Source: a bacterium (GTDB taxonomy: Bacteria > JACPSX01). From it: a stretch of 14,234 bases of DNA. Shown here piece by piece: positions 279 through 14,118 of the stretch (position 1 is the stretch's first letter; each line of letters begins with the position of its first letter). A model generated the notes under the pieces. That model was not told where the DNA came from. It did not search any database and saw nothing but the letters and a program-made list of their open reading frames with translations. Where the stretch lies: contig DATEAK010000276.1 of NCBI GenBank assembly GCA_035288405.1, forward strand, positions 1 to 14,234, in the 5' to 3' direction. A program made the translations under genes and the position numbers.

Positions 279-1403
279 TTAAGATTCCCGGCTGTGCAGC
301 CCCACAGTAGCCGTCCCTGTGACGGTAGTTTCCTTGCGCTGGTTTTCCGTCCACAGCTCGCAGTCGACCAGGCACTCGCTGCCCTCTTTGCGTTTGCCTG
401 TAATCCGTCCGCGACACCAGGTCGTATCTCCGAACAGGTTGGGACGCTCGATCTTCACCTGGAGACGTTTGAGAAACCCGTCATCCCCCATCCAATTCGT
501 CAGGAGGTGGCCCATCCAACTGATGCGTTGGTGGCCCACATCGTAGGCCCCGGGCATGCCGATGATTTCCCGGGCGACCCTCTCATCCAGGTGCCCCACG
601 GCAGCGTTGATGAGTTCGCCCTGGGCGTTGCGGTAAAACATCTTGTCGCCCTTATAGGGATCCAGATAGGATCGCTCCAGAGCCTTGAAGGGCGTAGGAT
701 AACCGAGGCCCGCCATGTAACAAACCATGTCCACGAGGTTCAGGGGACCTTTGACCACGGGAGTGATCAGGTCCCCCGCATTCACCTCTTCCCAGAATCG
801 GGTCTTGGATCCTCTCATTTCTTCGCGCAGAACGTCCTGGCGAATAGCTTCCAGTTGTTCCTCGGTGTAGGTCTGTCTGCGCGCCTCCTGGCGCATATGA
901 CCCTCGGCTCCAACCCGGGGAATGCGGAGTGTGCGTCCCAAAGCACGGGCAAGGAGCTTGCCGTCCTGCCGGGTGTAGGTAACTTCCCCCACCTGAATCA
1001 GGAAACGTTCCACTTTTTTCCCGCGATGTTCCTCTACGTCTACGATCCGCACGCATGGGGTAATGCCGTCACCGGCACGCGCCACATCGTAAAAAGTCCA
1101 ATCGGTTCCTCCGAAGATGAGCTGGATGCCTCCGAGCCCGGGGGCTACGATCGTCGTGTCAACGGTGTGCAGGAAAGTGGGCGGGGCAATCGTGCAGCCG
1201 TAAGGGCTTTTCTTGCCGTAATCCCGGCTGCACCAGAGAGGATTTTCGTCTCCGATTCCGTGGGCGTAGTGACGGATCGCGTCTTGACTCGCCTCCTCGT
1301 TCCATTGGTTTCCGGGTTTCGCTCGCACCACTTCCTGACCGATCATGGCGCGGGCTTCCTGAACCAGCTCGTCCGTCAAGGGAATTGGCTGGACACCTGA
1401 CAT
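279..1403 (-). CDS. MaoC-like / FAS1-type double hot-dog (R)-specific enoyl-CoA hydratase/dehydratase
   Basis: Track ORF is 279..1514. The likely true start is the internal ATG at 1403-1401 (MSGVQPIPLTDELVQEARAMIGQEV...), preceded by GGAGGAACCAAGTG. The ATG overlaps the IclR stop as TGATG. The ~374-aa product has an N-terminal non-catalytic hot-dog half and a C-terminal MaoC-like half (…GDDGFLKRLQVKIERPNLFGDTTWCRGRITGKRKE…). Confidence 0.75.
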   Translation of the reverse strand: MSGVQPIPLTDELVQEARAMIGQEVVRAKPGNQWNEEASQDAIRHYAHGIGDENPLWCSRDYGKKSPYGCTIAPPTFLHTVDTTIVAPGLGGIQLIFGGTDWTFYDVARAGDGITPCVRIVDVEEHRGKKVERFLIQVGEVTYTRQDGKLLARALGRTLRIPRVGAEGHMRQEARRQTYTEEQLEAIRQDVLREEMRGSKTRFWEEVNAGDLITPVVKGPLNLVDMVCYMAGLGYPTPFKALERSYLDPYKGDKMFYRNAQGELINAAVGHLDERVAREIIGMPGAYDVGHQRISWMGHLLTNWMGDDGFLKRLQVKIERPNLFGDTTWCRGRITGKRKEGSECLVDCELWTENQRKETTVTGTATVGLHSRES

Positions 1404-2323
1404 CACTTGGTTCCTCCGGTTGGGGTTAAACTTTTTGTTGCGGGGTTGAAAGCGGGGAAAACGAGCTTCTTGCCCGGGAATCCTATTTTCTGCGACAACT
1501 CGAGAGCCGCGCAAACAGCCGCCTGCCCGAGGGACTCGAAATCGCCGTCGAGGAACTGAGCAGCCGGCCTTCCAATGCCGATGGCACCCATCACCGCGCC
1601 GGATTGATCCAGCACCGGAGCAGCCACTGCCCTCACACCCGGAAGGGATTCGTTCCTGTTCGTGGCGTAACCTCTCCGGCGCACCCGTTCCAATTCTTGC
1701 AGAAGGAGCTTCGTGGAAACGATGGTCTCACGTGTGAAGGGACGAAGCGGGGATTTCTTCAGGAGCACTTTCACCTCAGCACCACTACATCCGGCCAGTA
1801 GAGCCTTTCCAATCGCGCCATAATGAATCGGACGCTGGTCCCCTTCGATGATGATCAGACGGACCTGGTCGGGGCTTTCAACGGCAGCCACGGTCACCTG
1901 GGTCAATTCCTCTCGATCGGCGACTCGGAAGAACACAGTGGCGCGATGGCGGGCGGCCACGGGCTTCAGGACGGGATTGGCCAGGTCACAGAGGTACTGA
2001 AAGTTGCGGACTCGCCTGCCCAGCTCGAACAGCTTGAGACCCAGGCAATACTTTCCGTTCGGTTCCTGTTGTTCCAGAAAGTGTCGCCCCACGAGCGTAC
2101 GCAGCGCTTTGTGCGCTCGGCTCTTGTGCAGCCCAAGACGACGGCTGATTTCGGTGACGCCCAGCTCTTTCTCGGGCCCGAGAAAGCATTCGAGGATGCG
2201 AAGGCCCACATCGAGCCCTTGGGCTAGATAAAGGGTCGTCTTCCGGCGACGAGGCGGTGAAGAAGTTGGCACTGAGTCCGTCCCCTCCGGGGGTAGAGAG
2301 TATAAGTGCAACTGCGATCCCAT
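1403..2323 (-). CDS. IclR-family transcriptional regulator
   Basis: N-terminal wHTH LAQGLDVGLRILECFLGPEKELGVTEISRRLGLHKSRAHKALRTLVGRHFLEQQ followed by an IclR-type C-terminal effector domain. Start is uncertain: no SD before ATG 2323. An internal GTG (residue 18) lies ~9 nt after GGAGGGG and is an alternative. Confidence 0.8.
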   Translation of the reverse strand: MGSQLHLYSLPPEGTDSVPTSSPPRRRKTTLYLAQGLDVGLRILECFLGPEKELGVTEISRRLGLHKSRAHKALRTLVGRHFLEQQEPNGKYCLGLKLFELGRRVRNFQYLCDLANPVLKPVAARHRATVFFRVADREELTQVTVAAVESPDQVRLIIIEGDQRPIHYGAIGKALLAGCSGAEVKVLLKKSPLRPFTRETIVSTKLLLQELERVRRRGYATNRNESLPGVRAVAAPVLDQSGAVMGAIGIGRPAAQFLDGDFESLGQAAVCAALELSQKIGFPGKKLVFPAFNPATKSLTPTGGTK

Positions 2324-2452
2324 CTGTTCTTGTATGGGAAAGCGAGTTTCGAGTTTAATCTTCTTGGCGCTGGATTGTAAACGGAAAAATTCAATGCCCC
2401 AACCCTATCCCAGAGGGAGAGGGAGAATCCATGTCCTGTCAAAATACGAGTC

Positions 2453-2526
2453 ATGGCCGCGGGCTCCTTGCGGTGGCATTTGTCGCAGTTCTCCTGGACG
2501 TTGTGGCCACCGAAACGGCGGCACAT
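2453..2526 (-). pseudogene. relic duplicate of the 3' end of the multihaem cytochrome gene (…GGHNVQENCDKCHRKEPAAM…)
   Basis: Nucleotides 2453-2526 are ~79% identical to 4139-4201, the 3' end of the cytochrome at 4106-4678, in the same orientation. Translation MCRRFGGHNVQENCDKCHRKEPAAM parallels ACASCHNTQENCQKCHRKQPTAM. A GGAGGAACT-ATG lies at 2526, but the downstream reading frame is low-complexity and runs into the IclR start region. It sits inside spurious track ORF 2224..2733. Confidence 0.4.
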
Positions 2527-2558
2527 AGTTCCTCCGCGGAAGGCCGCGGTAATCAGCC

Positions 2559-2587
2559 TTGACATTGCGCGGGCAAGGAAATAGAGT
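2559..2587 (+). promoter_or_regulatory. sigma70-like promoter candidate TTGACA-N17-TAGAGT upstream of the nucleotidyltransferase gene
   Basis: TTGACA at 2559-2564, a 17-nt spacer, then TAGAGT at 2582-2587, ~95 nt upstream of the 2684 start on the same strand. Sequence match only. Confidence 0.3.
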
Positions 2588-2683
2588 TGTTTCAAAGGAT
2601 TATGTTCGCGGATTGTTCCTGGTTGGAATGTGGGAACCGACGGCTGCGGGAATCGTGTTGGGAAGTGATCATCACTACGGGGG

Positions 2684-3037
2684 ATGCTTGTTGTGGCAAG
2701 ATCCAGGCAAGTGAAGAGTAGCCGGCCTCTCAAAGGGATTCTTCGGGAGCTTGCGCAGGCACTAAAAGACCGATACGGGGAGAAATTTGTGGGTCTCTGG
2801 CTCTATGGATCCCAGGCCCGCGGTCAGGCCCACGACCAATCAGACGTCGACCTTTTGTTGCTCCTGCGGGGAGAAGTCCGACCCTCAAAAGAAATTGACC
2901 GGATTGCCGACCTGCTGGCCGATTTTAACCTGCGGTACGGAGAACTCCTGTCGGTTCTCCCTGTACATGAGCAGACTTTCAAGAACGGCGACGGCCCTTT
3001 CTGGCGCAACGTGCGCCGGGAAGGCAAGGCCGCATGA
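2684..3037 (+). CDS. MntA-like minimal nucleotidyltransferase (Pol-beta superfamily), toxin-antitoxin-associated type
   Basis: Motif GSQARGQAHDQSDVDLLLLL matches the G-S-x(n)-D-x-D nucleotidyltransferase signature. Size is ~115 aa. The ATG at 2684 has a poor SD; GTG at 2693 preceded by GGGGGA is an alternative start. The stop overlaps the next gene as ATGA. Confidence 0.75.
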   Translation: MLVVARSRQVKSSRPLKGILRELAQALKDRYGEKFVGLWLYGSQARGQAHDQSDVDLLLLLRGEVRPSKEIDRIADLLADFNLRYGELLSVLPVHEQTFKNGDGPFWRNVRREGKAA

Positions 3038-3444
3038 TTGAACGGGAAGGCTTGATCCACAAGGCCCGGCGCTTCCTAATGAAGAAAGTACCGCCTAACG
3101 GAGCCCGGAGGAAAGATAACGGGATGCGTGCCGAATATGATTTCGCAGGCGGAATGCGCGGCAAGCACCATCGGGCCATGCAAGCCGGATATACAGTTAC
3201 GATTCATCAGGCGGATGGTACATCCGTCACTGAGGAGGTAAGACCTAAGGAAGGCGTAGTCATCCTAGCGCCAGATGTACGGGAGTACTTCCCGGACGCT
3301 GAGTCGGTGAACACAGCTTTGCGCTTGCTCATTAGGCTCATTCCTGACGAGCGTACCTCCGCTGCGAAAAGGGCGAAGAGTCGCGACGCGAGACGCCCGG
3401 ATGCCTTCCCCGGTGGCCGGAAATCGACCACGAAGAGGAGATAA
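3034..3444 (+). CDS. DUF4415/BrnA-like putative antitoxin-type protein
   Basis: The M-R-A-EYDF-AGG-M-RGK-H motif and …VVILAPDVREYFPDAESVNTALRLLIRL resemble the eYDFskakrGk / …v.irLd.dvleyf….iN.aLr… pattern of BrnA/DUF4415 proteins. The ATG at 3034 overlaps the upstream stop as ATGA. An internal ATG at 3124 (GGAGGA 11 nt upstream) would give a more typical ~106-aa product. No HEPN Rx4-6H motif is present, so it is not a HepT partner. Confidence 0.45.
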   Translation: MIEREGLIHKARRFLMKKVPPNGARRKDNGMRAEYDFAGGMRGKHHRAMQAGYTVTIHQADGTSVTEEVRPKEGVVILAPDVREYFPDAESVNTALRLLIRLIPDERTSAAKRAKSRDARRPDAFPGGRKSTTKRR

Positions 3445-3522
3445 GGGTAAATTGACTTCCGACTTATTTTCCAGGTCCAGGGGCTGGGTCAAAGGCCCTC
3501 GGTGAGATAGTGGAGGAGGACA

Positions 3523-3762
3523 ATGCCGAAGATTGAGGTAAACGAGGAGCAAATTCTGATTGCCCTGGAGCAGCTTTCTCCGGCGGCCAGACGGGTCGCA
3601 CTCGGCAAGCTGATTGGCGGCCTGGAAAGGCTCGACCGTCTGGTGGACCGAAACCGGGAAAAGATCGAGAGCATCTGTCGCGACCGAGGACTGGACTTTT
3701 CCCGACTCACGGAAGAAGAGCGCGAGGCACTGGTGGATGAGATTCTCCATACAGGTGCCTAG
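3523..3762 (+). CDS. small helical protein, putative antitoxin of the downstream PIN remnant
   Basis: Strong SD GGAGGAGGA directly before the ATG at 3523. The 79-aa product is charged, coiled-coil-like and has no TM. Its stop TAG at 3760-3762 is immediately followed by the GTG of the PIN fragment. Confidence 0.45.
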   Translation: MPKIEVNEEQILIALEQLSPAARRVALGKLIGGLERLDRLVDRNREKIESICRDRGLDFSRLTEEEREALVDEILHTGA

Positions 3763-3933
3763 GTGAAGGTTGTCCTGGACACCAACATCAATAAATTCCT
3801 CGAAACAGCTCAGGTCTCCGGCGCCACTTATATTATCTCTGGCGATCACCACCTTCTGAGTCTGGGAACATTTGCTAACATTTCTGTGATTCGAGCCCGC
3901 GCCTTTCTTGACACACTTGGTCCCAACGAGTAG
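3763..3933 (+). pseudogene. PIN-domain toxin remnant with in-frame internal deletion
   Basis: Starting from the GTG: VKVVLDTNI|NKFLETAQVSGATYIISGDHHLLSLGTFANISVIRARAFL…*. The N-terminal vvlDTN strand is fused directly to the C-terminal DNKFLE…A.YlvTgDkdLL……iltP.eFl segment of PIN_3-type toxins. About 80 central residues, including the catalytic acidic residues, are missing. At 56 aa it is below the track threshold. Confidence 0.5.
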
Positions 3934-4105
3934 AGGTTGCACAGAAGTATTTGCGGGTTCTTGATAAACTGGTGCGGGCGTACGGTCGGGCAAACCTGTC
4001 CATAACCGTCGATGGTGGAAAGTTTCGACAGTGAAACACCTTCCCTTTGGCCTCTTTCCTGGGGCAGGAGGAAAGGCTTCAGGAAAAGCAGACGGGTGAA
4101 GCGGT

Positions 4106-4678
4106 CTAGCTCGCTGATTTGTTCCCGGCTGCCGGGGCCATGGCTGTGGGCTGCTTGCGGTGACACTTCTGGCAGTTTTCCTGGGTATTGTGGCAGCTTG
4201 CACATGCCTCCATGGAAGGCCGGTTCGTCGGTGTGATGCGGGCGTCGTGGGCGATGTTCACGTGACATTGCACGCAGGCGACTCCCATGTCGCCGGCGTG
4301 AAGCTTGTGAGGAATCTTGATCCCCTACACGTTGACTCGCATGATTCTGGGCTCGCCGTTTCCCACTTCCTTGTGGCAACTGCGGCACTTCTTGTCCACG
4401 TCACCGGGATCCGCTGAGAAGCTCTGCGGGAAACCTTGAGCAATGGGAAACTTGGCCTTGCCGTGGCAGCCGATGCAGGGAATTTTGGAGGTGTGCCCTG
4501 TAGCGGAGACTGCAAGAGGTGTGGCCCCCTGACCGTGGCAGGTCAGGCAAAAGCTCGGATTGCCGGAGGAGTAGCGGATCAGAGACAGAGTTCCCACGAT
4601 ACTGAGAACGATCGCAGCCACGCCTCCTAGGAGGATGGGGCCGCGCCAGCGATGAGGGATGCGGATCCCGGGATTCAT
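4106..4678 (-). CDS. membrane-anchored NapC/NirT/NrfH-like multihaem cytochrome c (six CxxCH), interrupted by an in-frame TAG at 4325-4327
   Basis: Track ORFs 4325..4678 and 4106..4288 are in the same frame, separated by a single TAG (4327-4325) plus 12 sense codons (…RIMRVNV*GIKIPHKLHAGDMGVACVQCH…). There is an N-terminal TM helix, an SFCLTCH first-haem motif typical of NapC/NrfH, and then CIGCH, CRSCH | CVQCH, CASCH, CQKCH. SD GGAGGAAAACAATA precedes the ATG at 4678. There is no SD before the internal Met at 4288. Confidence 0.75.
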
Positions 4679-4692
4679 TATTGTTTTCCTCC

Positions 4693-6951
4693 TTACACCT
4701 TGGCTACTTCGACTTCAGTTTCCATCCAGGCGTATTCCTGGCTCACCGGATCTTCCTTTTTCGGAACGATGGCGTTTAGATAAATTCCGCTGCCTTGTCC
4801 CTCCCACCAGACCAGGAGGGTGTCGGGATCACTGCTCTTGAAGCTCTTGCCCCGGGCAATGCGGCCGTGCCCCCAGTGCCCGAAGCCTTCCGCACAGGCC
4901 ACCACCTGAGGGTGAACTCCCTGGCTGATCCGTACTTTCTGCGTGACGGTGCCGTTCGCAGTTTTCAGGCGCACCTGATCCCCCTCCCGCACATGCAGAG
5001 CTGCGGCGGTTTCAGGATGGAGCCACAGGGGGTTGTCATGCTGGATCTCGGCGAGCCACTTGCAGGCCGCGGTGCGAGACCCTCCGCGCACGGTGCCCTT
5101 GAAAGTGGCGAGCATGAGCCGGCCGTTCGTGCGCCCGTTTTTTTCGGGCTCATAGCTCGGCAATCCTGCGAATCCCTGGCGGTGCATGGCCTCGGAGTAA
5201 ACTTCAAAGCGGCGAGAGGCGGTCTTGAACCCTTTTCCCCGATACTGCCGGAATCGGGGCTTTGCTTTTTCGTTAAACCATACCCCTTTTTTCTTGAGGG
5301 CTTCAAACCCTCCGGCCCCGGCCAGTCCGTCGATCTTCGGGGCCACCTTTTCCAGGTAGTCTTCAAAACTCCGGTAGGGGAAGAACGGTTCGACTCCGGG
5401 GATTCGGCGCGCCAGATCCAGGCACACCTCGGTAAATGGTTTTACCTTGGGGGGAGGCGTGACGAGGGGTTGCCGCAAACTCACGTACGGTACGTGTTCG
5501 AAGCTGGGGCCTGACTCCAGATCCCAACGCTCGAGATAGGTGGCGTCGGGCAGGACCAAGTCGCACAAGATTGCGGTCTCGCTCATGAAGGTGTCCACTG
5601 CCACCGAGTAGGGAATGAGCCGCTCGTCCTTGAAGACTTGAGTGATGGACCCCGAGTCCGGGGAAGCGTAAACGGGGTTGGCGGTGTAGGCCAGGTAAAT
5701 TCCAACTTTGATTTTTCGGCGGGCAATGTCCGAGAACAGGTTGTTGTGGTGGAAGGGAGAAGCCTGGCTTACCTTGGGAGGCACCGGTGTCAGGTCCGGG
5801 ATCGCAGCTCGCCGAGGGAAACAGGGACCGCCGGGCACGTCGACGTTTCCGATCACGGCGTTCAGAAGCGCAACGCAGCGCTCGTTCTGTGTTCCCTGCT
5901 GCCGCATGGAAACTCCGCGACCCGTGAGTGTGGTCGCCGGCTTCGTGGTTGCAAACTCGCGGGCCAGCCTCCGGATCACTGCTGCCGGCACCCCGCTTAC
6001 CTTCTGGGCGGCTTCGGGCGTGTAGGGATCCAGGTGGCGGCGCATGTGAACCAGGGGGAAGTTCGTCCACTCTTCTAGAAACTGCCGGTCGTGGAGTCCT
6101 TCCTCGATGATGGTGCGGGCCATGGCCATGGCCACGAACCCGTCCGTTCCCGGAGTGATCGGGTACCACTCATCGCTGCGCCCCGAGGTGTTCGAGATGC
6201 GCACGTCGAAGGTGACCAGGCGGGCGCCGTTCATGCGAGCCTCGTTGAGGCGCTGGATGAGAGGCAGATGGAAGAGATAGGCCTCGTAAGGATTGCCGCC
6301 GAAGTTGAGGATGTATTTGCTACGGGAGATGTCGGGAATCAGCACATCCTCGCCGTAGGTGAGAAGAGAGGCTGTCTCCCGACTGGCGCCGCCCAGGGAA
6401 GTCTCCAGTGTGTCCGAGGAAGTTCCATAGGCATGCAGGAAGCGCCGCACGAAGTTCAGCGTGGCGTTCTCCTTGGACTTGAAGTTTCCCTGGAAGATGA
6501 AGCGGTCCGCCTGTCCTTTCGCCTTGAGCTCCTGCAGCTTGGTCGAGAGTTCCTGAATCGCCTGATCCCAGGAGATCTGTTCCCAGCGCATCTCCCCGCG
6601 CTTGCCCGTGCGCTTGAGGGGGAACAGGAGGCGATCCGGATTGTTCACCAGGTTGGTGCCCGCCTGGCCCCGGGCGCAGAGTTTGCCCCGATTATTGGGA
6701 TGCAGGGGATTACCCTCGATTTTCACCAGCCGCCCTGAGTTAGTATCCACGTAACCCAGGATGCCGCAGCCTGCCGCGCACTGAAAGCAGGTACTGGGGA
6801 TGGCGACCCGGGCTTTGCCGGTGGTACGTGATACTTCCTCTCCTCCCGGTTTGAGCTCCTGGCCGAGACCGGGCAGGGGAAGCATCTCCCCCAGGGCCAG
6901 AATTCCCGCCCCGCCGATTCCAAACTTAAGAAACCTTCTGCGATCAATCAT
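4693..6951 (-). CDS. Tat-exported molybdopterin (bis-MGD) oxidoreductase catalytic subunit, PsrA/PhsA/TtrA family
   Basis: N-terminal twin-arginine signal MIDRRRFLKFGIGGAGILALG. FS0 [4Fe-4S] motif CFQCAAGCGI…(27)…C. The 752-aa length matches PhsA/PsrA. Its start lies 2 nt after the SPFH stop (TAACGATG). Confidence 0.9.
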   Translation of the reverse strand: MIDRRRFLKFGIGGAGILALGEMLPLPGLGQELKPGGEEVSRTTGKARVAIPSTCFQCAAGCGILGYVDTNSGRLVKIEGNPLHPNNRGKLCARGQAGTNLVNNPDRLLFPLKRTGKRGEMRWEQISWDQAIQELSTKLQELKAKGQADRFIFQGNFKSKENATLNFVRRFLHAYGTSSDTLETSLGGASRETASLLTYGEDVLIPDISRSKYILNFGGNPYEAYLFHLPLIQRLNEARMNGARLVTFDVRISNTSGRSDEWYPITPGTDGFVAMAMARTIIEEGLHDRQFLEEWTNFPLVHMRRHLDPYTPEAAQKVSGVPAAVIRRLAREFATTKPATTLTGRGVSMRQQGTQNERCVALLNAVIGNVDVPGGPCFPRRAAIPDLTPVPPKVSQASPFHHNNLFSDIARRKIKVGIYLAYTANPVYASPDSGSITQVFKDERLIPYSVAVDTFMSETAILCDLVLPDATYLERWDLESGPSFEHVPYVSLRQPLVTPPPKVKPFTEVCLDLARRIPGVEPFFPYRSFEDYLEKVAPKIDGLAGAGGFEALKKKGVWFNEKAKPRFRQYRGKGFKTASRRFEVYSEAMHRQGFAGLPSYEPEKNGRTNGRLMLATFKGTVRGGSRTAACKWLAEIQHDNPLWLHPETAAALHVREGDQVRLKTANGTVTQKVRISQGVHPQVVACAEGFGHWGHGRIARGKSFKSSDPDTLLVWWEGQGSGIYLNAIVPKKEDPVSQEYAWMETEVEVAKV

Positions 6952-6953
6952 CG

Positions 6954-7952
6954 TTATTCACTCGCTGAATGGCTGCCGTTGGCGTCCGGCTTTTCACCGT
7001 TGCCGCTGTTGCTGTTCGTAATCTTGTTGAGCGCGGTCACGCCCATGAGAGCTCCCAGCCCCATGGTTTCGACGGCCGAGCTCGGTACGATGACCATGGA
7101 GCCCCTCTCCTTGAGGCCTTCGTAGAGCATGTTCATGGCTCGCAGGTGAAGGGCCGTGGGATTATCCTTGTAGGATTCGGCTGCCTCGGCGAACATCTGG
7201 GCAATCTGAGTCTCCGATCGTCCGAGGATCACTCGGGCCTGACGCTCTCTCTCTGCCTGGGCCTGGATCGACAGGGCGTCCTGGAGAGAGGCCGGGATGA
7301 TCACGTCCCGGATCTCCACGGAAAGAACCTGAAGGCCCCAGCCGTCGGTGCGCTTGTCAATGAGGTTCTTGATCTGCTCGTCGATATTCTCACGCCCCAC
7401 GAGCATATCGGAGAGCTCGCTCTTGCCGATCACATCCCGCAGAGCCGTCTGGGATGCCCAGCTGATCACGTCGTAGTAGTCGGTGACTTCCAGTGCCGCT
7501 TTTTCAGGGTTGACGACTTTCCAGAAGCAGACGGCGTCCACGTCTACGGGGACGTTGTCTTTGGTCAAGGTTTCCTCGGCCCGGAAGCCGGTAGCGGTTA
7601 GCCGCAGGTCGATCCAGTAGGGAATCGTGTCAATCAGGGGGAAGATGAAAAAGAGGCCCGGGCCCGCCATCCTATGGAATTTCCCCAAGCGCAGGACGAT
7701 GGCGCGCTCCCACTGAGTCGCGACCTTCAGAGCCAGAAGGATAAACACGCCCACCGCCAGCAGAATCCCAGTAGGAATCGGGTTGTTTGTCAGGACGAAG
7801 GCCCCTACTCCGAACAGGGCGCACGCCACAAACAAGGTGGCCGAGAGGAGATTCGGGCGCAGCGTACCGGCCCGGATCTTCTGGGCCTCGAACTCATCCT
7901 GCTGTCTTTTGGCGGCGCGCCGGATCTCTTGCTTGGTACTCGGTTCCATCAT
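6954..7952 (-). CDS. SPFH/band-7 (stomatin/HflKC-like) membrane protein
   Basis: One N-terminal TM followed by the characteristic ATQWERAIVLRLGKF…GPGLFFIFPLID SPFH core and a coiled-coil Q/E/R-rich region. Strong SD AAGGAGGAA sits 4-5 nt before ATGATG at 7952. It lies between the NrfD and catalytic-subunit genes. Confidence 0.85.
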   Translation of the reverse strand: MMEPSTKQEIRRAAKRQQDEFEAQKIRAGTLRPNLLSATLFVACALFGVGAFVLTNNPIPTGILLAVGVFILLALKVATQWERAIVLRLGKFHRMAGPGLFFIFPLIDTIPYWIDLRLTATGFRAEETLTKDNVPVDVDAVCFWKVVNPEKAALEVTDYYDVISWASQTALRDVIGKSELSDMLVGRENIDEQIKNLIDKRTDGWGLQVLSVEIRDVIIPASLQDALSIQAQAERERQARVILGRSETQIAQMFAEAAESYKDNPTALHLRAMNMLYEGLKERGSMVIVPSSAVETMGLGALMGVTALNKITNSNSGNGEKPDANGSHSASE

Positions 7953-7979
7953 TCAGTTCCTCCTTGCGTGGTTACCAGT

Positions 7980-8879
7980 TTAGTGTTGGGGAATTGCCTG
8001 TCCGCCGATTACCATGGTGTAGCGCATCGCGAAGATTCCGAGCATGACTAGAACCGAGGCCACCGAGATCCCAAAGGGGGTCCGGGTGATGCGGTTGCTC
8101 AAGAGGGCAAGGGGGACCAGCGCCCCCAGGAGGATCTCTCCTCCCAGGAAGATATTTCGGAAGGCCCCTGTGAGGATGAGTTGTGCGGCCTCGTACGCTT
8201 CGTCGTGGGAGTTCAAGAGGACGAGAATGTCCGTGCCGATCAGGGAGAGATCCGCAACGATGGATACGATCAGCATGACCACCAGGCCGTTGATGAGGTC
8301 CATGTTAATCTTGCGCTCGGCGCTGAAGAATTTGTCCCGGGCGATTGCGATCAGAATCATCATGGCGATTCCGGAAACCATGGCCGAAGCCAGAAAGATG
8401 AAGGGCATCAACGCCGTGTTCCACAAAATGCGCGCCTTGGCCAGAGCCAGGATGAACCCCGTGTAGCCGTGCACCGACAGGGCGAGCGGGATGCCGATCA
8501 AGCCGAAGATCTTTGTGAGCTTGGCTTTTCCCATAAACATGAAAGTTCCGTAGATCATGCAGTTGATCGGGTACAGGGTGAGAAGAAACGAACCGTAAGA
8601 AATGGCCGAAGTTGGGTTGATGTAGTAGAAGAGTTCCCAGAAGCGCCAGGGCTGCTCCAGGTCGATCATCAAGTTCAAGGGCGCCACGATAAGGAGCAGG
8701 ATAGCCACGACGACGCCGATCTTCCCCAGGGGCTTGTAGCGGATCATGCCGAAGCCGTAAGCCAGTGTGGACAGGATGAAGGAACCGGCGCTGAGTCCCG
8801 TGAGATAGAAATAAACGGCAATGGGGATCCCCAGAGCCTCTCCGTAAGCGACGTTGTAAATGGTCGTAACTTCAGTCAT
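7980..8879 (-). CDS. NrfD/PsrC-family polytopic membrane quinol-interacting anchor subunit
   Basis: 299 aa, ~8 hydrophobic helices, typical NrfD/PsrC composition. The start ATG is 1 nt after the FeS-subunit stop (TAAGATG), with AGAGGAAG SD. Confidence 0.9.
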   Translation of the reverse strand: MTEVTTIYNVAYGEALGIPIAVYFYLTGLSAGSFILSTLAYGFGMIRYKPLGKIGVVVAILLLIVAPLNLMIDLEQPWRFWELFYYINPTSAISYGSFLLTLYPINCMIYGTFMFMGKAKLTKIFGLIGIPLALSVHGYTGFILALAKARILWNTALMPFIFLASAMVSGIAMMILIAIARDKFFSAERKINMDLINGLVVMLIVSIVADLSLIGTDILVLLNSHDEAYEAAQLILTGAFRNIFLGGEILLGALVPLALLSNRITRTPFGISVASVLVMLGIFAMRYTMVIGGQAIPQH

Positions 8880-8880
8880 C

Positions 8881-9486
8881 TTAGGCTTCCTCTACCCTTG
8901 TTTTGGCGGCCATCTCATCGAGGCCGATATAGAAAACTCGGGGCTCGGTCCCCTTCTCGGGCTTGAGAACCTGGATTGCGTTGGTGGCGATGAGACGGGA
9001 GATTTCGCTTTCGGGGTCGTTCACGTCTCCAAACACGCGGGCCCCGCCGGGACAGGTGTTGACACAAGACGGCACCAGCCCGGCGTCCACCCGGTGAAAG
9101 CAGAAGGTGCATTTCTGCACGATTTTCTTGACGGGGTTCACGTGCCGGGCGTCGTAAGGACAGGCGGCCATGCAATACTTGCAGCCGATGCAGCGGTGCT
9201 CGTCGATCATGACGATGCCGTCGGGCCTGCGGTAGGTCGCTTTCACGGGGCACACGCTCAGGCAAGCGGGACGCTCGCAGTTGTTGCACAGGCTGGGGAT
9301 GAAGACACGCCGTACGTTGGGGTAAGACCCTTTCTCTACGGTCTTGACCCAGGTCCGGTAGACTCCGAGGGGAACATCGTTTTCACTCTTGCAGGCAACG
9401 GCGCAGGAGTGACAGCCCAGGCAGCGCCTCAAGTCAATGAGCATGGCGTAGCGTTTGCTTTTTTTTTGGGAACCATTCCCTTTCAC
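8881..9486 (-). CDS. PsrB/TtrB/NrfC-like four-cluster [4Fe-4S] electron-transfer subunit
   Basis: Four ferredoxin-type motifs: CLGCHSCAVACKSEN, CNNCERPACLSVCP, CIGCKYCMAACP, CTFCFHRVDAGLVPSCVNTCP. Conserved KRYAMLIDLRRCLGC N-terminus. GTG start. No Tat motif, so it is presumably a hitchhiker on the catalytic subunit. Confidence 0.9.
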   Translation of the reverse strand: MKGNGSQKKSKRYAMLIDLRRCLGCHSCAVACKSENDVPLGVYRTWVKTVEKGSYPNVRRVFIPSLCNNCERPACLSVCPVKATYRRPDGIVMIDEHRCIGCKYCMAACPYDARHVNPVKKIVQKCTFCFHRVDAGLVPSCVNTCPGGARVFGDVNDPESEISRLIATNAIQVLKPEKGTEPRVFYIGLDEMAAKTRVEEA

Positions 9487-9637: not shown

Positions 9638-10054
9638 TTACCCTGAGTTCGGGGGGGTGCCCTCAGAGGAAAAGAATTGCTGTACCGTCCTGAGCCCGAT
9701 GAGGAGAGGAGTGGGCTCGGAGGACGCTGCGGGATCGAGGTTCTTCTCTGGGTCGAACCTCTCCAGGGATCTGTTGACGAGATGTTTGGTGATGGCTCCC
9801 ACGGCCAGCGCTACTAGAGAGCCTACGGCCAGCCAGAAGAGGCAGGCCACGGCCACTGCGAGGGCCATGCCGCCGACTACGAAGAGGGTGACGACTCCGC
9901 GCTCCGGCAGGGGAGAACCCATGATACTCACTGCCGAGATCAAGCCGAAAGAGCCCCCATAAAATATTCCCCAGGGAACTCCCACGAACAGAAAAACTGC
10001 GGCACCGGCAACAGCGCCGACTTTCAGTTGGAGTCGCAGTGCTCGTCGTGTCAT
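9638..10054 (-). CDS. hypothetical ~3-TM membrane protein with proline-rich soluble C-tail
   Basis: 138 aa. Three hydrophobic segments (AVAGAAVFLFVGVPWGIFYGG / FGLISAVSIMG / VVTLFVVGGMALAVAVACLFWLAVGSLVALAVGAI). Its start is 9 nt downstream of the receiver-gene stop. I recognise no family. Confidence 0.55.
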   Translation of the reverse strand: MTRRALRLQLKVGAVAGAAVFLFVGVPWGIFYGGSFGLISAVSIMGSPLPERGVVTLFVVGGMALAVAVACLFWLAVGSLVALAVGAITKHLVNRSLERFDPEKNLDPAASSEPTPLLIGLRTVQQFFSSEGTPPNSG

Positions 10055-10063
10055 GGCCCTCTC

Positions 10064-10495
10064 CTATTTTTGTACGCCCCCCTCCAGGGCCCGCAAAATC
10101 TGCCGCGGCTGGAAGGGCTCGAGAAAGCAAGGGAAGAAATCGACTTGCTCTCTTTCGCCACCGCAAAGCTCCGACTCATCTCCCACGGTTAGAATCACTC
10201 TGACCCCGGGATTGAGTCGGCGCACGATGGAAGCCACTTCGTATCCGGAAAGATCCCGAAGCTTCCCCTTGATGATGACTGCGTCCACCCCTCCGTTGAG
10301 CACCATGGAGACGGCCTTTCGGCCCTGGCGGGTTCGGGAAACCCGGTAGCCTTCCTCCTCGAGGAAATCCGTAAGGGACTCGCACTGGTCCTGTTCGTCG
10401 TGAACGAGAAGAATGCGCCGAACCTCGGGCCTTTCCGTGTCTCCGTTGCCCCTGGAGAAGAACTTTTTCCCAAGGAGATCCATCAATCCGTTCAT
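10064..10495 (-). CDS. stand-alone CheY-like receiver-domain protein with degenerate active site (pseudo-receiver)
   Basis: Track ORF is 10064..10546 with a GTG start. That start overlaps the sigma54 promoter, so the likely start is the ATG at 10495 (M18), with AGAGGAAC SD 7 nt upstream. The receiver fold is conserved (RRILLVHDE…T in RVILTVGD). However, the phospho-acceptor position reads VIIK (Lys) and the β5 Lys position reads CFLEPF (Glu). Confidence 0.7.
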   Translation of the reverse strand: MNGLMDLLGKKFFSRGNGDTERPEVRRILLVHDEQDQCESLTDFLEEEGYRVSRTRQGRKAVSMVLNGGVDAVIIKGKLRDLSGYEVASIVRRLNPGVRVILTVGDESELCGGEREQVDFFPCFLEPFQPRQILRALEGGVQK

Positions 10496-10529
10496 CGGTG
10501 GTTCCTCTGTTAGTGTTGCCATGGAGAAG

Positions 10530-10546
10530 TGCAGGTTGTGTGCCAC
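10530..10546 (-). promoter_or_regulatory. sigma54 (RpoN) -24/-12 promoter TGGCAC-N5-CTGCA for the oxidoreductase operon
   Basis: The minus strand reads G-TGGCAC-ACAAC-CTGCA (plus 10530-10546 tgcaggttgtgtgccac). This is one mismatch from TGGCAC-N5-TTGCA. It lies ~35 nt upstream of the proposed receiver start and downstream of an NtrC-type activator gene. Confidence 0.5.
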
Positions 10547-10591
10547 AGCGCCGACACACCGGCAACGCCTTAGCAGGCCGCTGAAAAAGTC

Positions 10592-10616
10592 TCGTGGTTC
10601 GACAGGCTCACCACGA
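10592..10616. promoter_or_regulatory. inverted repeat TCGTGGT-N11-ACCACGA, candidate enhancer-binding-protein UAS
   Basis: Perfect 7-bp arms at 10592-10598 and 10610-10616, centred ~85 bp upstream of the predicted sigma54 transcription start. Confidence 0.3.
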
Positions 10617-10784
10617 ACGGTTAAGTACTAATGTTTTCAATAGCAGTCCCGTTCGGCCTGAGCTTGTCGAAGGCCAAATGGAGGGCGTTAGATTTGCTGG
10701 AAGATTTGAGGGTCTGAGGAGTGTTCAGGAAGTTCGGAAAGGAGGGGAGAAAAAAAGTGAAACGAAGTTTTGCAAAGGATCATT

Positions 10785-12167
10785 TCATTCTTTAATGTCT
10801 TTCTGGCTCTCCTCAATCTTGCGCCAGAGGGTCACGGTGCTGATTCCGAGGATCTCAGAAGCCTTTTTGCGGTTCCAGCGGGTGGCCTGCAGAACTTCCA
10901 AAATGTAGTCTTGCTCGATCTTCTTGAGGGAAGGGTATTGATCAACCCCCTTGGCGTCATTTATAGCAACAGATGAGGCGGGTACCGCTTCGCTGTTGAG
11001 CTGGCTGAAGCTGTCTATGGTGATTATCTCTGCTTCGGTGAGGATCACGGCGCGCTCGACGGCGTTTTCCAGCTCCCGGACATTTCCAGGCCACGGGTAG
11101 CTCTCCAGGAGAGCACGAGCTCCAGGGGTGAACCCCCTCACCCGTTTCTTCAAATCCGCGTTATACTTCGCGAGAAAGTAGTCGGCCAGCAGAGGAATAT
11201 CTCCCGGTCGTTCACGCAAGGGAGGAAGCATGATCGGCATCACATTCAGCCGGTAGTAGAGATCCTCGCGAAAGGTGCCGCGGCGGATGGCATCCTTCAG
11301 ATCCCGATTCGTGGCCGCCACGATGCGCACATCTACGAAGACCTTGCGCTCGCTTCCCACGGGCTGGATCTCTCTCTCCTGCAAGGCTCGCATGAGCTTG
11401 GCCTGGAGATCAACGCTCATGTCCCCTACCTCGTCCAGGAACAAAGTTCCGCCGTCGGCGAGCTCGAAGAGCCCTTTCTTACGGCGCAGGGCTCCGGTAA
11501 AGGCGCCCTTCTCATGGCCAAAGAGCTCGCTTTCCAGGAGATCCGCGGGGATGGCGGCGCAATTGACCACCACCAACTGGCCGTTGGCACGGCTGCTCTT
11601 CTGATGAACCTGCCGGGCCACGAGCTCCTTGCCCGTTCCCGTTTCCCCCAGGATCAGCACCGTGGAATCAGTGACGGCCACCTTGTCGATGAGCTGGCAT
11701 ACTTTCTGAATGGGGTCACTCTCGCCGATGATTTTTCCGGCGCTCACGGAACGGCGCAGGGCTTCCTTGAGGGCCCGGTTTTCCTGGAGGAGGTGCTGGC
11801 GCTCCAGGGCATTTTTGATCACCAGGCGCAGCTCGTCGGGGGTGAAGGGCTTGGGAACGTAGTCTACAGCCCCCTCCCGCATGGATTCCACCGCCGTGTC
11901 CACGTCGGCGTAACCCGTGATCATGATGACCGCCAGTTGGGAATCGATTTTGTGAAGGGATCGCAGGAGCTCGATGCCGCTCATCTTGGGCATCTTGATG
12001 TCGGCCACGATGATATCGAAAGCGTCGGTCCGAAAGCGCTCAAGGGCTTCGAAGCCGTTGCTGCAGGTCACGACCTCGTAATTTTCTTTCTTGAGGGCTT
12101 GGGTGCAGGCGTCCCGTGTGTCTTCCTCGTCGTCCACGATCAGGATGCGCTTGCGGGGCAGTTCCAT
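10785..12167 (-). CDS. NtrC-family sigma54-dependent response regulator (receiver + AAA+ + Fis-type HTH)
   Basis: Canonical receiver (ILIVDDEED…IIVADIKMP), Walker A GETGTGKE, the GAFTGA motif, and C-terminal HTH EILGISTVTLWRKI. AAAGGG SD. The gene lies 13 nt downstream of the kinase stop. Confidence 0.92.
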   Translation of the reverse strand: MELPRKRILIVDDEEDTRDACTQALKKENYEVVTCSNGFEALERFRTDAFDIIVADIKMPKMSGIELLRSLHKIDSQLAVIMITGYADVDTAVESMREGAVDYVPKPFTPDELRLVIKNALERQHLLQENRALKEALRRSVSAGKIIGESDPIQKVCQLIDKVAVTDSTVLILGETGTGKELVARQVHQKSSRANGQLVVVNCAAIPADLLESELFGHEKGAFTGALRRKKGLFELADGGTLFLDEVGDMSVDLQAKLMRALQEREIQPVGSERKVFVDVRIVAATNRDLKDAIRRGTFREDLYYRLNVMPIMLPPLRERPGDIPLLADYFLAKYNADLKKRVRGFTPGARALLESYPWPGNVRELENAVERAVILTEAEIITIDSFSQLNSEAVPASSVAINDAKGVDQYPSLKKIEQDYILEVLQATRWNRKKASEILGISTVTLWRKIEESQKDIKE

Positions 12168-12180
12168 AAACCCTTTCCCT

Positions 12181-14118
12181 CTATGCAGACACCGCAGCCA
12201 CGCCGGCCTGCACCGGAAGGCGAAAGATCAGAGCCGTCCCTCCTTCACCGTTGCCGCTCTCAATCCAGATGTTTCCCCCGTGCCTCTGGATGATCCCGTA
12301 ACAGATGGAGAGACCGAGTCCCGTCCCTTTATCTTTGGTCGTGTAAAAGGGCTCGAAAACTTTGGAGTGCAGTGCCTTGGGAATGCCGGGCCCGTTGTCT
12401 TTTACCGTCACAACGACCCAGTCTAGATCGAGTGCCCGGGTAATGACCTCGATCCGTCCTCCGGCATGAAATGCCTGGACGGAGTTCTGCATGACGTTCA
12501 CCAGAACCTGCTGGATCTGACTGCGGTCGCAGATAACCCGGGGAAGATCGGGTTCCAAGTGCAAGTGACACTCTACATTATTAATACGGATCTCGTTGGC
12601 CAAAATGCTATTGGCGGCCAGGACGATCTGATTCATATCGTTGGGTTCCATGTCCGTGTTGGTGCTGCGAGTGTAGTCCAGCAGATCCGAGACGATCTTC
12701 TTGCTGCGCACCACGTTGTCCACGATCTTGCGGATGTTCTTGTAATGAGGATCCTCGGGGGCGGTTTCCTCCAGGACGAGCTTGGAATAGAGGAGGATGT
12801 TTCCCAAGGGATTGTTGATCTCATGAGCCACGCCGGCGGCGAGCTGCCCCGTGGCTGCCAGGCGCTCGGAGTGGATGAGCTGCTTTTGCAGTGATTCCCG
12901 GCTCTTCTCCTCGGTGAGATCGTGGGTAATATCCACATAGGCCAGGGTGTGGTCGTGCTCGTCTCGCAGGCTGCTGATGTTGACAAAAGCAGGGAAAGTT
13001 TTACCGTTCTTGCGCAGAAGCTGAATCTCGCTCCGGTAGGATCCTTCCAGTTCAACGGCATTCCAGACTCGACGCTGCGTCTCTCCCAGGAGGGAGTAAG
13101 GCTCACCGGTTAGTTCCATAGCACCGTAGCCGAGCATCTCCTCGGCGCCGTGACTGAAGAAAAGGATGGTGCCGTTGGGATCTATGACGATGATGGACTC
13201 GCGCACGTTGCCAAGCACCCGCTCCAGGAGTTCCTTTTTGTCCCGAATCTCGATGGAGCGTTTGAGGGCGTCGGCCATCTCGTTGAAGGATTGGGCCAGA
13301 ACTCCGATCTCGTCTTCTCCTTCGCCCAGAACTTTCCTGTCGAAATCCCCCTTGCTGAAGAACTTCGTCAAGTCCACGAGCTTTTTCAGGCGGTTGATCA
13401 CCAGGCGGTTCAACAGGAGACTCAGGACGATGACCGCGGTGATGATCATGAGTCCCATGGAGTAGAGAACCTCTCTGAATTTCGTGGCGATTTGCTTCTC
13501 AATGTCGGTCATGGAGAAGTCGGTGATGAGGACCCCGTTGATCTTGGTCAGGGGACTGTGACAGCCGTAGCACTCGGGTTCGTTGAAGATGGGGTTCACG
13601 TTGCGGAAGATTTGCTCGCCGTTCTCTTCCTTATATATGACGGTCTTGTTACGCACTTCGGGGCTATACCGGTGGCAGATCTGGCAGGTGTAATCGTTCT
13701 GATTGAGGATCTCACCGACCCGTCTCATCTCCGGGGACATCTTGATCTCCCCGCGCTTGTCCACCAGGAAAATGTTGTCTACCCCCTTCTGCTTGCCGAC
13801 GGTTTCGATGATGTAGCGGGCCTCCTCCAGATCGCGGTTGATCATGGCGTGCTTGAGGCTCCCCTTGATGACGTCGCTTAAGTAATGGGTGCTGGAATCC
13901 CGCAGGTTTTCGATGAGGTCGTGGCGAAAGCGGAACACCTGGTAGCTGTAGAAGACCGACATGATGGCCACGATGGCCACCACGATCCCCACAGTTGCCT
14001 TGAAGCGTAAGCTTTGATGAAACCTCTTGATCCTCAAAGGCCAACCTATGGATGCAGAACGAACTTCGAACGGTTGACCCCTCCCAATGGGGAATACATG
14101 TAGTCTCTTTGGGGACAA
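12181..14118 (-). CDS. sensor histidine kinase: TM, periplasmic domain with two c-type haem motifs, TM, HAMP, PAS, HisKA, HATPase_c
   Basis: TM1 ATVGIVVAIVAIMSVFYSY. ~160-aa periplasmic region containing CQICH (13686-13672) and CYGCH (13572-13558). TM2 VLYSMGLMIITAVIVLSLLL. Then HAMP, PAS, the H-box AAGVAHEINNPL, and N/G1/G2 boxes (DNGPGIP…GTGLGLSI). The track start at 14118 is TTG; the true start is uncertain. Confidence 0.9.
   Translation of the reverse strand: MSPKRLHVFPIGRGQPFEVRSASIGWPLRIKRFHQSLRFKATVGIVVAIVAIMSVFYSYQVFRFRHDLIENLRDSSTHYLSDVIKGSLKHAMINRDLEEARYIIETVGKQKGVDNIFLVDKRGEIKMSPEMRRVGEILNQNDYTCQICHRYSPEVRNKTVIYKEENGEQIFRNVNPIFNEPECYGCHSPLTKINGVLITDFSMTDIEKQIATKFREVLYSMGLMIITAVIVLSLLLNRLVINRLKKLVDLTKFFSKGDFDRKVLGEGEDEIGVLAQSFNEMADALKRSIEIRDKKELLERVLGNVRESIIVIDPNGTILFFSHGAEEMLGYGAMELTGEPYSLLGETQRRVWNAVELEGSYRSEIQLLRKNGKTFPAFVNISSLRDEHDHTLAYVDITHDLTEEKSRESLQKQLIHSERLAATGQLAAGVAHEINNPLGNILLYSKLVLEETAPEDPHYKNIRKIVDNVVRSKKIVSDLLDYTRSTNTDMEPNDMNQIVLAANSILANEIRINNVECHLHLEPDLPRVICDRSQIQQVLVNVMQNSVQAFHAGGRIEVITRALDLDWVVVTVKDNGPGIPKALHSKVFEPFYTTKDKGTGLGLSICYGIIQRHGGNIWIESGNGEGGTALIFRLPVQAGVAAVSA

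Follow-up and report, generated by a model that had tools for sequence, protein, structure and literature searches.

The stretch of DNA analysed here raises the question of why a gene for a membrane-anchored SPFH-family protein should lie among the structural genes of a putative respiratory complex. The stretch, which we call the window, comprises 14,234 nucleotides (nt), i.e., positions 1 to 14,234 of contig DATEAK010000276.1 in assembly GCA_035288405.1, from a bacterium of the GTDB lineage JACPSX01. Its SPFH gene occupies positions 6954-7952 of the minus strand, and is transcribed after a gene for an NrfD-type membrane anchor and before a gene for a molybdopterin-family large subunit. On balance, we lean toward the reading that one sub-family of NrfD-anchored complexes for periplasmic electron transfer has the SPFH protein as a dedicated and co-transcribed accessory component. 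By analogy with solved SPFH assemblies, this protein most probably builds a cytoplasmic-face dome around the membrane anchors. The conserved occurrence of SPFH genes from two lineages within respiratory-complex operons of several phyla seems not to have been described before.

We begin with the protein itself. The 332-amino-acid (aa) product matches the Pfam Band_7/SPFH family PF01145 over residues 77-246 with 122.5 bits against a cutoff of 23.6 (E 2.5e-35), and the QWERAIVLRLGKF...GPGLFFIFPLID core, on which the sequence-only reading had based its assignment to the band-7 proteins, is present in the open reading frame (ORF). That assignment was right, and the homology searches refine it, placing the product in the stomatin/slipin subfamily. 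In a phmmer search of the PDB, the top match was P. horikoshii stomatin PH1511 (E 1.1e-40), with human stomatin at E ~6e-40; the latter alignment covers residues 67-292 and extends through the C-terminal helical region. The match to E. coli QmcA was weaker (E 2.8e-28), and those to HflK and HflC merely reached about 1e-9. An AlphaFold2 monomer model, built from an alignment of 60 sequences, has a mean pLDDT of 72; when it was used as a Foldseek query, ranks 1-9 were taken by stomatins, and chains of the human stomatin 16-mer, PH1511 and QmcA led the list, followed by HflK/C. Homologues of the protein are named "slipin family protein" in their source records. An HflK/C identity was rejected, because the NCBIfam models gave 78.3 bits for HflK (cutoff 159.4) and 42.4 bits for HflC (cutoff 134.4). 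Given the PDB matches, these sub-cutoff scores and the ranking of the structural model, the product is a stomatin/slipin-type protein.

The architecture of the protein is likewise that of a stomatin, with an additional segment in front; all coordinates that follow refer to the minus strand. An N-terminal extension delimited by alignment, rich in lysine and arginine and ending in a GT[LF]R motif, spans residues 1-34 (7851-7952), and the model has a helix at residues 5-31. Next comes a hydrophobic helical hairpin, the predicted membrane anchor, at residues 35-82 (7707-7850), modelled as helices 35-55 and 58-82 with an Asn-Pro turn. The SPFH (Band 7) domain proper, recovered by Pfam, by the PDB search and in the model, covers residues 84-218 (7299-7703), and is followed by long C-terminal helices at residues 221-283 (7104-7292), modelled as 221-261 and 265-283. 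In stomatin and HflK/C, the matching C-terminal part builds the wall of an oligomeric dome, and the helices that form this wall in the solved stomatins are present in the monomer model of the window protein. Segments rich in lysine and arginine flank both ends of the hairpin, which puts the N-terminus and the SPFH domain on one side of the membrane. QmcA has its SPFH domain on the cytoplasmic side. By analogy, the N-terminus and the SPFH domain of the window protein would also be cytoplasmic, i.e., on the side opposite to the subunits exported through the twin-arginine translocation (Tat) or Sec pathway.

The gene is built into its operon. It is co-oriented with, and closely packed between, the gene for an NrfD/PsrC-type integral membrane anchor of 299 aa (7980-8879, minus strand; Pfam NrfD, E 8.9e-44) and the gene for the large subunit, a protein of 752 aa (4693-6951, minus strand) with the Tat motif RRRFLK and Molybdop_Fe4S4, Molybdopterin and Molydop_binding domains. 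The placement between these two genes, the strong Shine-Dalgarno site of its own and the stop codon 2 nt from the next start codon had all been noted in the sequence-only reading, and each was borne out. The Shine-Dalgarno site AAGGAGGA lies at 7958-7965 (minus strand), 5 nt ahead of the SPFH ATG, and is identical in locus L011, which also has the same gene order and the same 2-nt junction. The SPFH stop codon TAA (6954-6956) is separated by two nucleotides (6952-6953) from the large-subunit ATG (6949-6951, minus strand), and purine-rich stretches in the 3' end of the SPFH gene are candidate Shine-Dalgarno sites for the large subunit. At either SPFH junction, no sigma-70-like promoter or terminator-like site was found on the coding strand. 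Judging from the 2-nt spacing, translational coupling of the SPFH gene and the large-subunit gene is plausible.

Is this arrangement a peculiarity of one genome? The synteny survey that the sequence-only reading had proposed was carried out by scoring 8000 SPFH homologues, building a neighbor-joining (NJ) tree of the SPFH proteins and reading the genomic contexts. Six metagenome contigs encode the exact SPFH protein of the window, and the gene order is identical in all of them. The nearest genome is that carrying L011, a groundwater metagenome-assembled genome (MAG) of Candidatus Tectomicrobia, in which the large subunit is 90% and the SPFH protein 95% identical to those of the window; L011 was the sole true orthologue returned by a scan of a genome collection with the single large-subunit protein, a scan that gave no breadth. 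Breadth came from the SPFH proteins themselves. The homologues with 64% identity or more (P0001-P0018) group in a single NJ clade, nested among the widespread "slipin family" proteins. In each context read (P0007, P0009, P0011 from an NC10 MAG, P0012 and P0017), the gene lies between an NrfD gene and a gene for a Tat-exported molybdopterin-type protein, and the order NrfD-SPFH-large subunit was found in every readable member of the clade (the window, L011, L007, L014 from NC10, L008, L009/L010 and L015/L016). Beyond the window, there are six diverged loci, from Tectomicrobia, NC10 and unassigned MAGs, and all six have this order. The gap between the SPFH gene and the large-subunit gene is 2-21 nt in six of the seven loci with this order. 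A gene for an iron-sulfur (FeS) subunit lies upstream of NrfD and a multihaem cytochrome gene downstream of the large subunit; it should be noted that, in L007, the cytochrome slot was called as a minus-strand ORF and the FeS gene is visible by tblastn only. A recent insertion unique to one genome was rejected, because the synteny is repeated in the six diverged loci.

Outside the clade, the contexts are different. The nearest outgroups, P0034 (57% identity), P0023 (61%), P0028 (60%) and P0033 (58%), lie in unrelated surroundings with neither NfeD nor respiratory genes. In the alignment, the solitary SPFH relatives lack the N-terminal extension and start right after it, whereas all homologues from NrfD-SPFH-large subunit loci have an extension of 25-35 aa ending in GT[LF]R. 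The restriction of this segment to the embedded clade suggests a new interaction surface.

The conservation of the SPFH protein can be compared with that of the complex subunits. Across the embedded loci, identity to the window proteins is 65-73% for the FeS subunit, 61-66% for NrfD, 64-69% for SPFH, 37-48% for the large subunit and 32-37% for the cytochrome; the range given for the large subunits of the six diverged loci is 37-50%. Thus, conservation of SPFH is on par with that of NrfD and the FeS subunit and far above that of the large subunit. Between the window and L011, the ratio of nonsynonymous to synonymous substitution rates (dN/dS) is 0.106 for SPFH, 0.079 for the FeS subunit, 0.103 for NrfD and 0.089 for the large subunit; the SPFH gene is under purifying selection, like the core subunits. 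Neutral carriage is one of the alternative explanations. SPFH genes are common and mobile among genomes and most related operons lack one, as would be expected if a chance slipin insertion had simply been carried along with this operon. A passenger, however, is not expected to be kept while the large subunit diverged to 37% identity, to show a dN/dS of 0.106, or to retain its Shine-Dalgarno site and tight junction. In addition, another SPFH lineage is found elsewhere in related operons (see below) and none in about 20 Psr-like outgroup loci. We strongly disfavour this explanation and consider it very improbable.

A separate observation concerns the synonymous rate itself. The dS of SPFH in the comparison of window positions 6954-7952 with L011 positions 6006-6998 is 0.23, about half of the 0.42-0.71 of its neighbours, and the dN/dS values are alike. 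The low dS could reflect an additional constraint on the mRNA, e.g., for coupling, or a more recent exchange.

To see how far the association reaches beyond the close relatives, JGI metagenomes were scanned with a large-subunit profile, and the loci obtained were then searched by tblastn and with hidden Markov models (HMMs). The census set consists of 53 operons with the order FeS-NrfD-large subunit, whose large subunits are 38-49% identical to that of the window. An insert between NrfD and the large subunit was found in 0 of these 53 operons. An SPFH gene is nevertheless present in 8 of the 53. A second SPFH lineage, with proteins of 263 aa that have a single transmembrane (TM) segment and are 35-38% identical to the window protein, was identified in seven of the 53 operons (L040, L044, L045, L046, L048, L049 and L069), where the gene lies between the large subunit and a multihaem cytochrome of about 410 aa. 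L100 and L101 also carry this lineage in the same place, as do many Desulfobacterota-type contigs, and the lineage comprises at least 120 database clusters at 88% identity or higher. The SPFH gene follows the large-subunit gene in two NCBI MAGs as well, Deltaproteobacteria bacterium RBG_13_53_10 and GCA_040960625; in the latter, the cytochrome gene comes directly next, and on the contig of the former no FeS or cytochrome gene was called. The spacing between the large-subunit gene and SPFH is 86-278 nt in this second arrangement. In L080, an SPFH gene 67% identical to the second lineage has a stop that abuts the start of the FeS gene exactly. Overall, two SPFH lineages occupy three operon positions: The gene may separate NrfD from the large subunit, separate the large subunit from the cytochrome, or precede the FeS gene. 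The tblastn and HMM searches found no SPFH gene in about 20 Psr-like outgroup loci.

L080 deserves a brief description of its own. Positions 699-7006 form one co-directional block of genes for a Rieske protein, cytochrome b, a multihaem cytochrome of 465 aa, SPFH, FeS, NrfD and large subunit, and the SPFH gene is at the seam of two quinone-reactive modules. In the second-lineage operons, a gene for a membrane protein of about 100 aa without Pfam match, and then a GAF-domain gene, lie downstream of the multihaem cytochrome (L044 8489-8815; L069 10717-11004; L100 and L101 about 10040-10975).

In trees of the large subunit and of FeS+NrfD, the second-arrangement operons come out as a robust clade (200 of 200 bootstrap replicates), and all SPFH-bearing operons fall in one region. 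The simplest reading is that one sub-family of the complex is tied to an SPFH partner, with the gene either acquired independently or replaced and moved. Taken together, the synteny and the different placement of a second lineage provide good comparative support for a dedicated association with the complex. The proposal that the SPFH protein is a dedicated factor for this complex thus gained a comparative link, from the six loci and the second lineage; the assembly, stability or raft-localization role given to it in the sequence-only reading is a suggestion about function that goes beyond this link.

Several observations weigh against the reading that we favour. No SPFH gene is in view in 45 of the 53 related operons, so that this type of complex does not generally need one, and a universal subunit of the operon family was rejected as an explanation, given that 8 of 53 carry the gene and 0 of 53 carry it at the NrfD-large subunit site. 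The joint monophyly of the SPFH-bearing operons has a bootstrap value of 34%: They are monophyletic in the BLOSUM-distance NJ tree, and one group without SPFH is nested inside in the Kimura-distance tree. Only four weak positions of NrfD are specific to SPFH-bearing operons. The solitary sisters are about 60% identical, so that the embedded copy may simply keep a general membrane function. With the SPFH domain predicted on the cytoplasmic side, and the FeS, large and cytochrome subunits on the periplasmic side, contact would be limited to the membrane anchors. Finally, the oligomeric dome, its cytoplasmic orientation, the enclosure of the anchor and any effect on function are inferred; what the data show directly is the nature of the protein, its place in the operon, the conserved synteny, the two SPFH lineages at three positions and purifying selection.

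Part of the same evidence would suit a different explanation, in which the SPFH protein serves membrane integrity or the stress response in general. It would be co-regulated with the complex because the membrane is stressed by heavy expression of the complex, or by its substrate or product, and would neither bind nor enclose the complex. The embedded protein is modestly diverged from the widespread solitary slipins (58-61% identity), most related operons function without SPFH, few residues of NrfD co-vary with its presence, and the wide gaps of 86-278 nt in the second arrangement leave room for regulation of SPFH on its own. Against this explanation, the two SPFH lineages are not merely encoded nearby but have been inserted among the structural genes of the operon, at three positions; in the arrangement found in the window, 2-21 nt separate the gene from the start of the large subunit; and the clade-specific extension with GT[LF]R suggests a new interaction surface. 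We consider this explanation rather unlikely.

How a stomatin-type protein could serve such a complex is suggested by solved structures. The assemblies of stomatin, QmcA and HflK/C are closed domes, in which a patch of bilayer is encircled by the membrane anchors; HflK/C encloses FtsH, and QmcA is a 26-chain assembly (PDB). The dome of human stomatin, a 16-mer, encloses a single AQP1 tetramer or UT-B trimer (PMC12407830; PDB 9oh9, 9z7u, 9zd2), with client contacts through intramembrane helices, cytosolic loops or the lipid belt (PMC12407830). It is the best structural match of the window protein, over nearly the whole chain, and enclosure is the mechanism that we propose here. Human stomatin differs in being eukaryotic and dependent on palmitoylation and cholesterol, and its clients are channels and transporters, which are neither redox proteins nor genetically linked to it. 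On the model of the solved stomatin, QmcA and HflK/C assemblies, the window protein would form a homo-oligomeric dome on the cytoplasmic face, and the membrane hairpins, arranged in a ring, would delimit a small patch of bilayer holding one or more NrfD subunits and the TM anchor of the cytochrome. The clade-specific N-terminal extension would be the obvious candidate for contact. Such a dome could promote the assembly or stability of the complex, or regulate its quinone- and proton-handling anchor from the cytoplasmic side.

A stronger version can be formulated, in which an undescribed NrfD-anchored sub-family, with a non-canonical large subunit of the molybdopterin type, depends on the stomatin dome as an obligate subunit, be it structural or regulatory. 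The dome would then gate or insulate the proton- and quinone-handling NrfD, much as eukaryotic stomatins modulate channels, and two SPFH lineages would have been recruited separately to answer one and the same need. If true, this would be the first prokaryotic SPFH cage whose defined client, encoded in the same operon, is neither a protease nor NfeD. We regard this version as possible, albeit doubtful.

Our preferred reading of a dedicated accessory component should also be set against the known partners of bacterial SPFH proteins. The stomatin-NfeD pairs PH1511/PH1510 and QmcA-YbbJ (PDB 3bk6, 8z5g) belong to the same family and have in common with the window protein an N-terminal anchor, the SPFH domain and the C-terminal helices. 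The window protein differs from PH1511 and QmcA in its two-helix hairpin anchor, which comes after the clade-specific extension of 25-35 aa, and, whereas NfeD is the partner in those pairs, the window operon has respiratory-complex subunits and no NfeD match. No window ORF matches NfeD (Pfam PF01957), and there is none among the genes called in the related loci. The sequence-only reading had seen no obvious NfeD here, and had noted that a nearby protein with three TM segments lacks a clear OB-fold tail; both statements hold. This 138-aa protein (9638-10054, minus strand) matches no Pfam or NCBIfam family, and its tail is short and not of the OB type; it was rejected as an NfeD partner. It was seen only in the lineage of the window and in L011 (74-83% identity, dN/dS 0.23); in the more distant operons of the same order (L007, L008, L014 and L015), its slot is taken by a c554-like multihaem cytochrome of about 380 aa.

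A second kind of partner is a protease. The HflK/HflC-FtsH, prohibitin and SLP-2 systems (PMC12005517; PMC3986555) are likewise SPFH assemblies tied to the abundance or assembly of respiratory proteins, with cage-forming C-terminal helices. They, however, belong to a different subfamily, are hetero-oligomeric, face the periplasm or the intermembrane space, and act with broad effects via an AAA protease; none is encoded inside a respiratory-enzyme operon. Just as HflK/C and prohibitins work with FtsH and m-AAA proteases, the SPFH protein of the window could be a quality-control adaptor that recruits or restrains a membrane protease encoded elsewhere, and thereby controls the turnover of NrfD or of unassembled subunits. 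Modulation of FtsH is the best-understood function of bacterial SPFH proteins (PDB 7vhp, 7wi3, 9cz1), and loss of HflK/C in E. coli destabilizes specific proteins and affects respiration (PMC12005517). Such an adaptor is quite unlikely in our view: The operon and the related loci examined contain no protease or NfeD gene, the protein is of the stomatin type with HflK and HflC scores far under the cutoffs, and its predicted orientation is cytoplasmic, as in QmcA, rather than periplasmic, as in HflK/C.

What kind of complex, then, would a dome of this type serve? The gene assignments rest on Pfam and NCBIfam profile matches of the window ORFs, and these reveal the three-subunit module of the complex iron-sulfur molybdoenzymes (CISM), i.e., a large subunit with a Tat signal and an FS0 site, a four-cluster FeS subunit and an NrfD anchor. 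In the PDB, the large subunit is closest to T. thermophilus PsrA (profile E 2.8e-97), and its FS0 cysteines C55, C58, C62 and C92 are invariant. The position of the metal ligand is different. In the profile alignment, Gly187 (codon 6391-6393, minus strand) occupies the column of the Mo ligand, which is Cys173 in PsrA and likewise a cysteine in ArrA; across about 55 members of the family, this column holds G, E, N, D, F, S or L, and Psr-like outgroups keep the cysteine. The canonical protein ligand of Mo or W, which is Cys, Sec, Ser or Asp in other CISM members, is thus absent from the window protein, and the labels "molybdoenzyme" and "catalytic subunit" become uncertain. Arsenite oxidase binds its cofactor without a side-chain ligand. 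The large subunit may be non-canonical, or it may not be a molybdoenzyme. Accordingly, the description of the locus as a molybdoenzyme operon stands as far as the Psr-type three-subunit module is concerned, and is doubtful with respect to the metal.

The Psr/Phs/Ttr group (T. thermophilus PsrABC, PDB 2vpw) has the same three core subunits, including the 8-TM NrfD anchor, and ttrBCA has the FeS-anchor-large subunit order of the window; compared to this group, the window has Gly187 at the ligand column, an added gene for a membrane-anchored multihaem cytochrome and the embedded SPFH gene. The Ttr equivalog models all scored under their cutoffs in the window (TtrA 147 bits against 1750, TtrB 259 against 416, TtrC 68 against 314). 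The QrcABCD complex, the menaquinone reductase of sulfate reducers (PMC13059093, PMC8076601), resembles the window in its four components, namely a hexahaem cytochrome c, an FeS subunit, an NrfD-like anchor and a molybdopterin-like large subunit in which the usual active site is missing. In contrast, QrcB lacks any redox cofactor, whereas the large-subunit family of the window keeps the four FS0 cysteines; the gene order of Qrc differs, no SPFH partner is given for Qrc (PMC13059093, PMC8076601), and the Qrc models remain far under their cutoffs (QrcB 196.6 bits against 440, QrcC 128.7 against 400, QrcD 34 against 570). Among the NCBIfam models for complex subunits, the sole equivalog over its cutoff was DsrO, for the FeS subunit.

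In the searchable full-text literature, we found no paper that pairs SPFH, stomatin, HflC, HflK, band 7, prohibitin or flotillin with NrfD. General links between SPFH proteins and respiration are known from HflK/C in E. coli (PMC12005517) and from mitochondrial band-7 proteins (PMC3986555), and a 2025 study of HflK/C states that, for most bacterial SPFH proteins, neither clients nor physiological roles are known (PMC12005517). Here, comparative genomics points to an NrfD-anchored electron-transfer complex as a specific candidate for a client, and turns the vague idea of a membrane-microdomain organizer into a testable two-partner system. There is a parallel to the proposed scaffolding of the mitochondrial respiratory chain by prohibitin and SLP-2. 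The analysis also draws attention to an uncharacterized and environmentally widespread family of complexes, represented in groundwater and sediment MAGs from Tectomicrobia, NC10 and Desulfobacterota-like organisms, with a large subunit that is devoid of the canonical Mo ligand.

The remaining genes of the operon and its flanks are described in the order of transcription, which is, all on the minus strand, kinase, sigma-54 regulator, receiver, 3-TM protein, FeS, NrfD, SPFH, large subunit and cytochrome. The histidine kinase (12181-14118) has a periplasmic sensor with two CxxCH haem-c motifs, CQICH and CYGCH, at 13558-13572 and 13672-13686 (minus strand). It is followed by a response regulator of the sigma-54-activator type (10785-12167, Pfam) and by a single-domain response-regulator receiver gene (10064-10546, Pfam), whose probable true start is the ATG at 10495, giving a product of 143 aa. 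The receiver gene is probably the first gene of the transcription unit. A sigma-54-type site, TGGCAC-N5-CTGCA, is located at 10530-10545 (minus strand), about 35 nt upstream of this ATG; the site is conserved at position 3414 of L011, and the receiver gene of L009 has a similar one in front of it (position 5801). Matches to the sigma-54 pattern in the window as a whole are no more numerous than expected by chance, and only the site ahead of the receiver gene is positionally sensible and conserved. This sigma-54-like site is probably the operon promoter, served by the sigma-54 activator encoded upstream.

Upstream of the embedded-SPFH loci, there is also a receiver gene, together with the kinase/sigma-54 regulator pair where the flank is in view; in L009, housekeeping genes take the place of this pair. 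Among the loci searched, matches to the haem-containing N-terminal sensor domain of the window kinase (E <= 1e-5, within residues 1-310) were confined to the neighbourhood of SPFH-bearing operons and to that of L058 and L065, two loci with truncated downstream flanks. The lone exception among the outgroups is L078, with a short match to the sensor at residues 207-288. No haem-type sensor kinase is in view in L009 and L080; elsewhere, it is shared wherever the upstream flank of an SPFH-bearing operon is readable. In the second-lineage operons, a homologous sensor (36-38% identity, residues 24-310) is carried by a different kinase, which is paired with a LuxR-type regulator.

The FeS subunit (8881-9486, minus strand; Pfam Fer4_11) is a TtrB/DsrO/NrfC-like protein of 201 aa with four clusters and without a signal peptide. 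At the other end of the operon, a gene at 4106-4678 (minus strand) encodes a membrane-anchored, NrfH-like hexahaem cytochrome c of 190 aa with six CxxCH motifs. It is broken by an in-frame stop codon at 4325-4327 (minus strand), which cuts the protein after the third haem motif; L001, L002, L004 and L011 encode Gln at this position. The stop could be a nonsense mutation in the population, or an assembly or sequencing error. Further downstream, between 2224 and 4300, no convincing genes were found apart from a pair of ORFs at 2684-3444 (plus strand). The first of these encodes a nucleotidyltransferase-domain protein of 117 aa (NTP_transf_2, E 2.6e-8) and overlaps by 4 nt with an ORF of 136 aa that matches no family, a layout that resembles small two-gene cassettes of the toxin-antitoxin-like kind.

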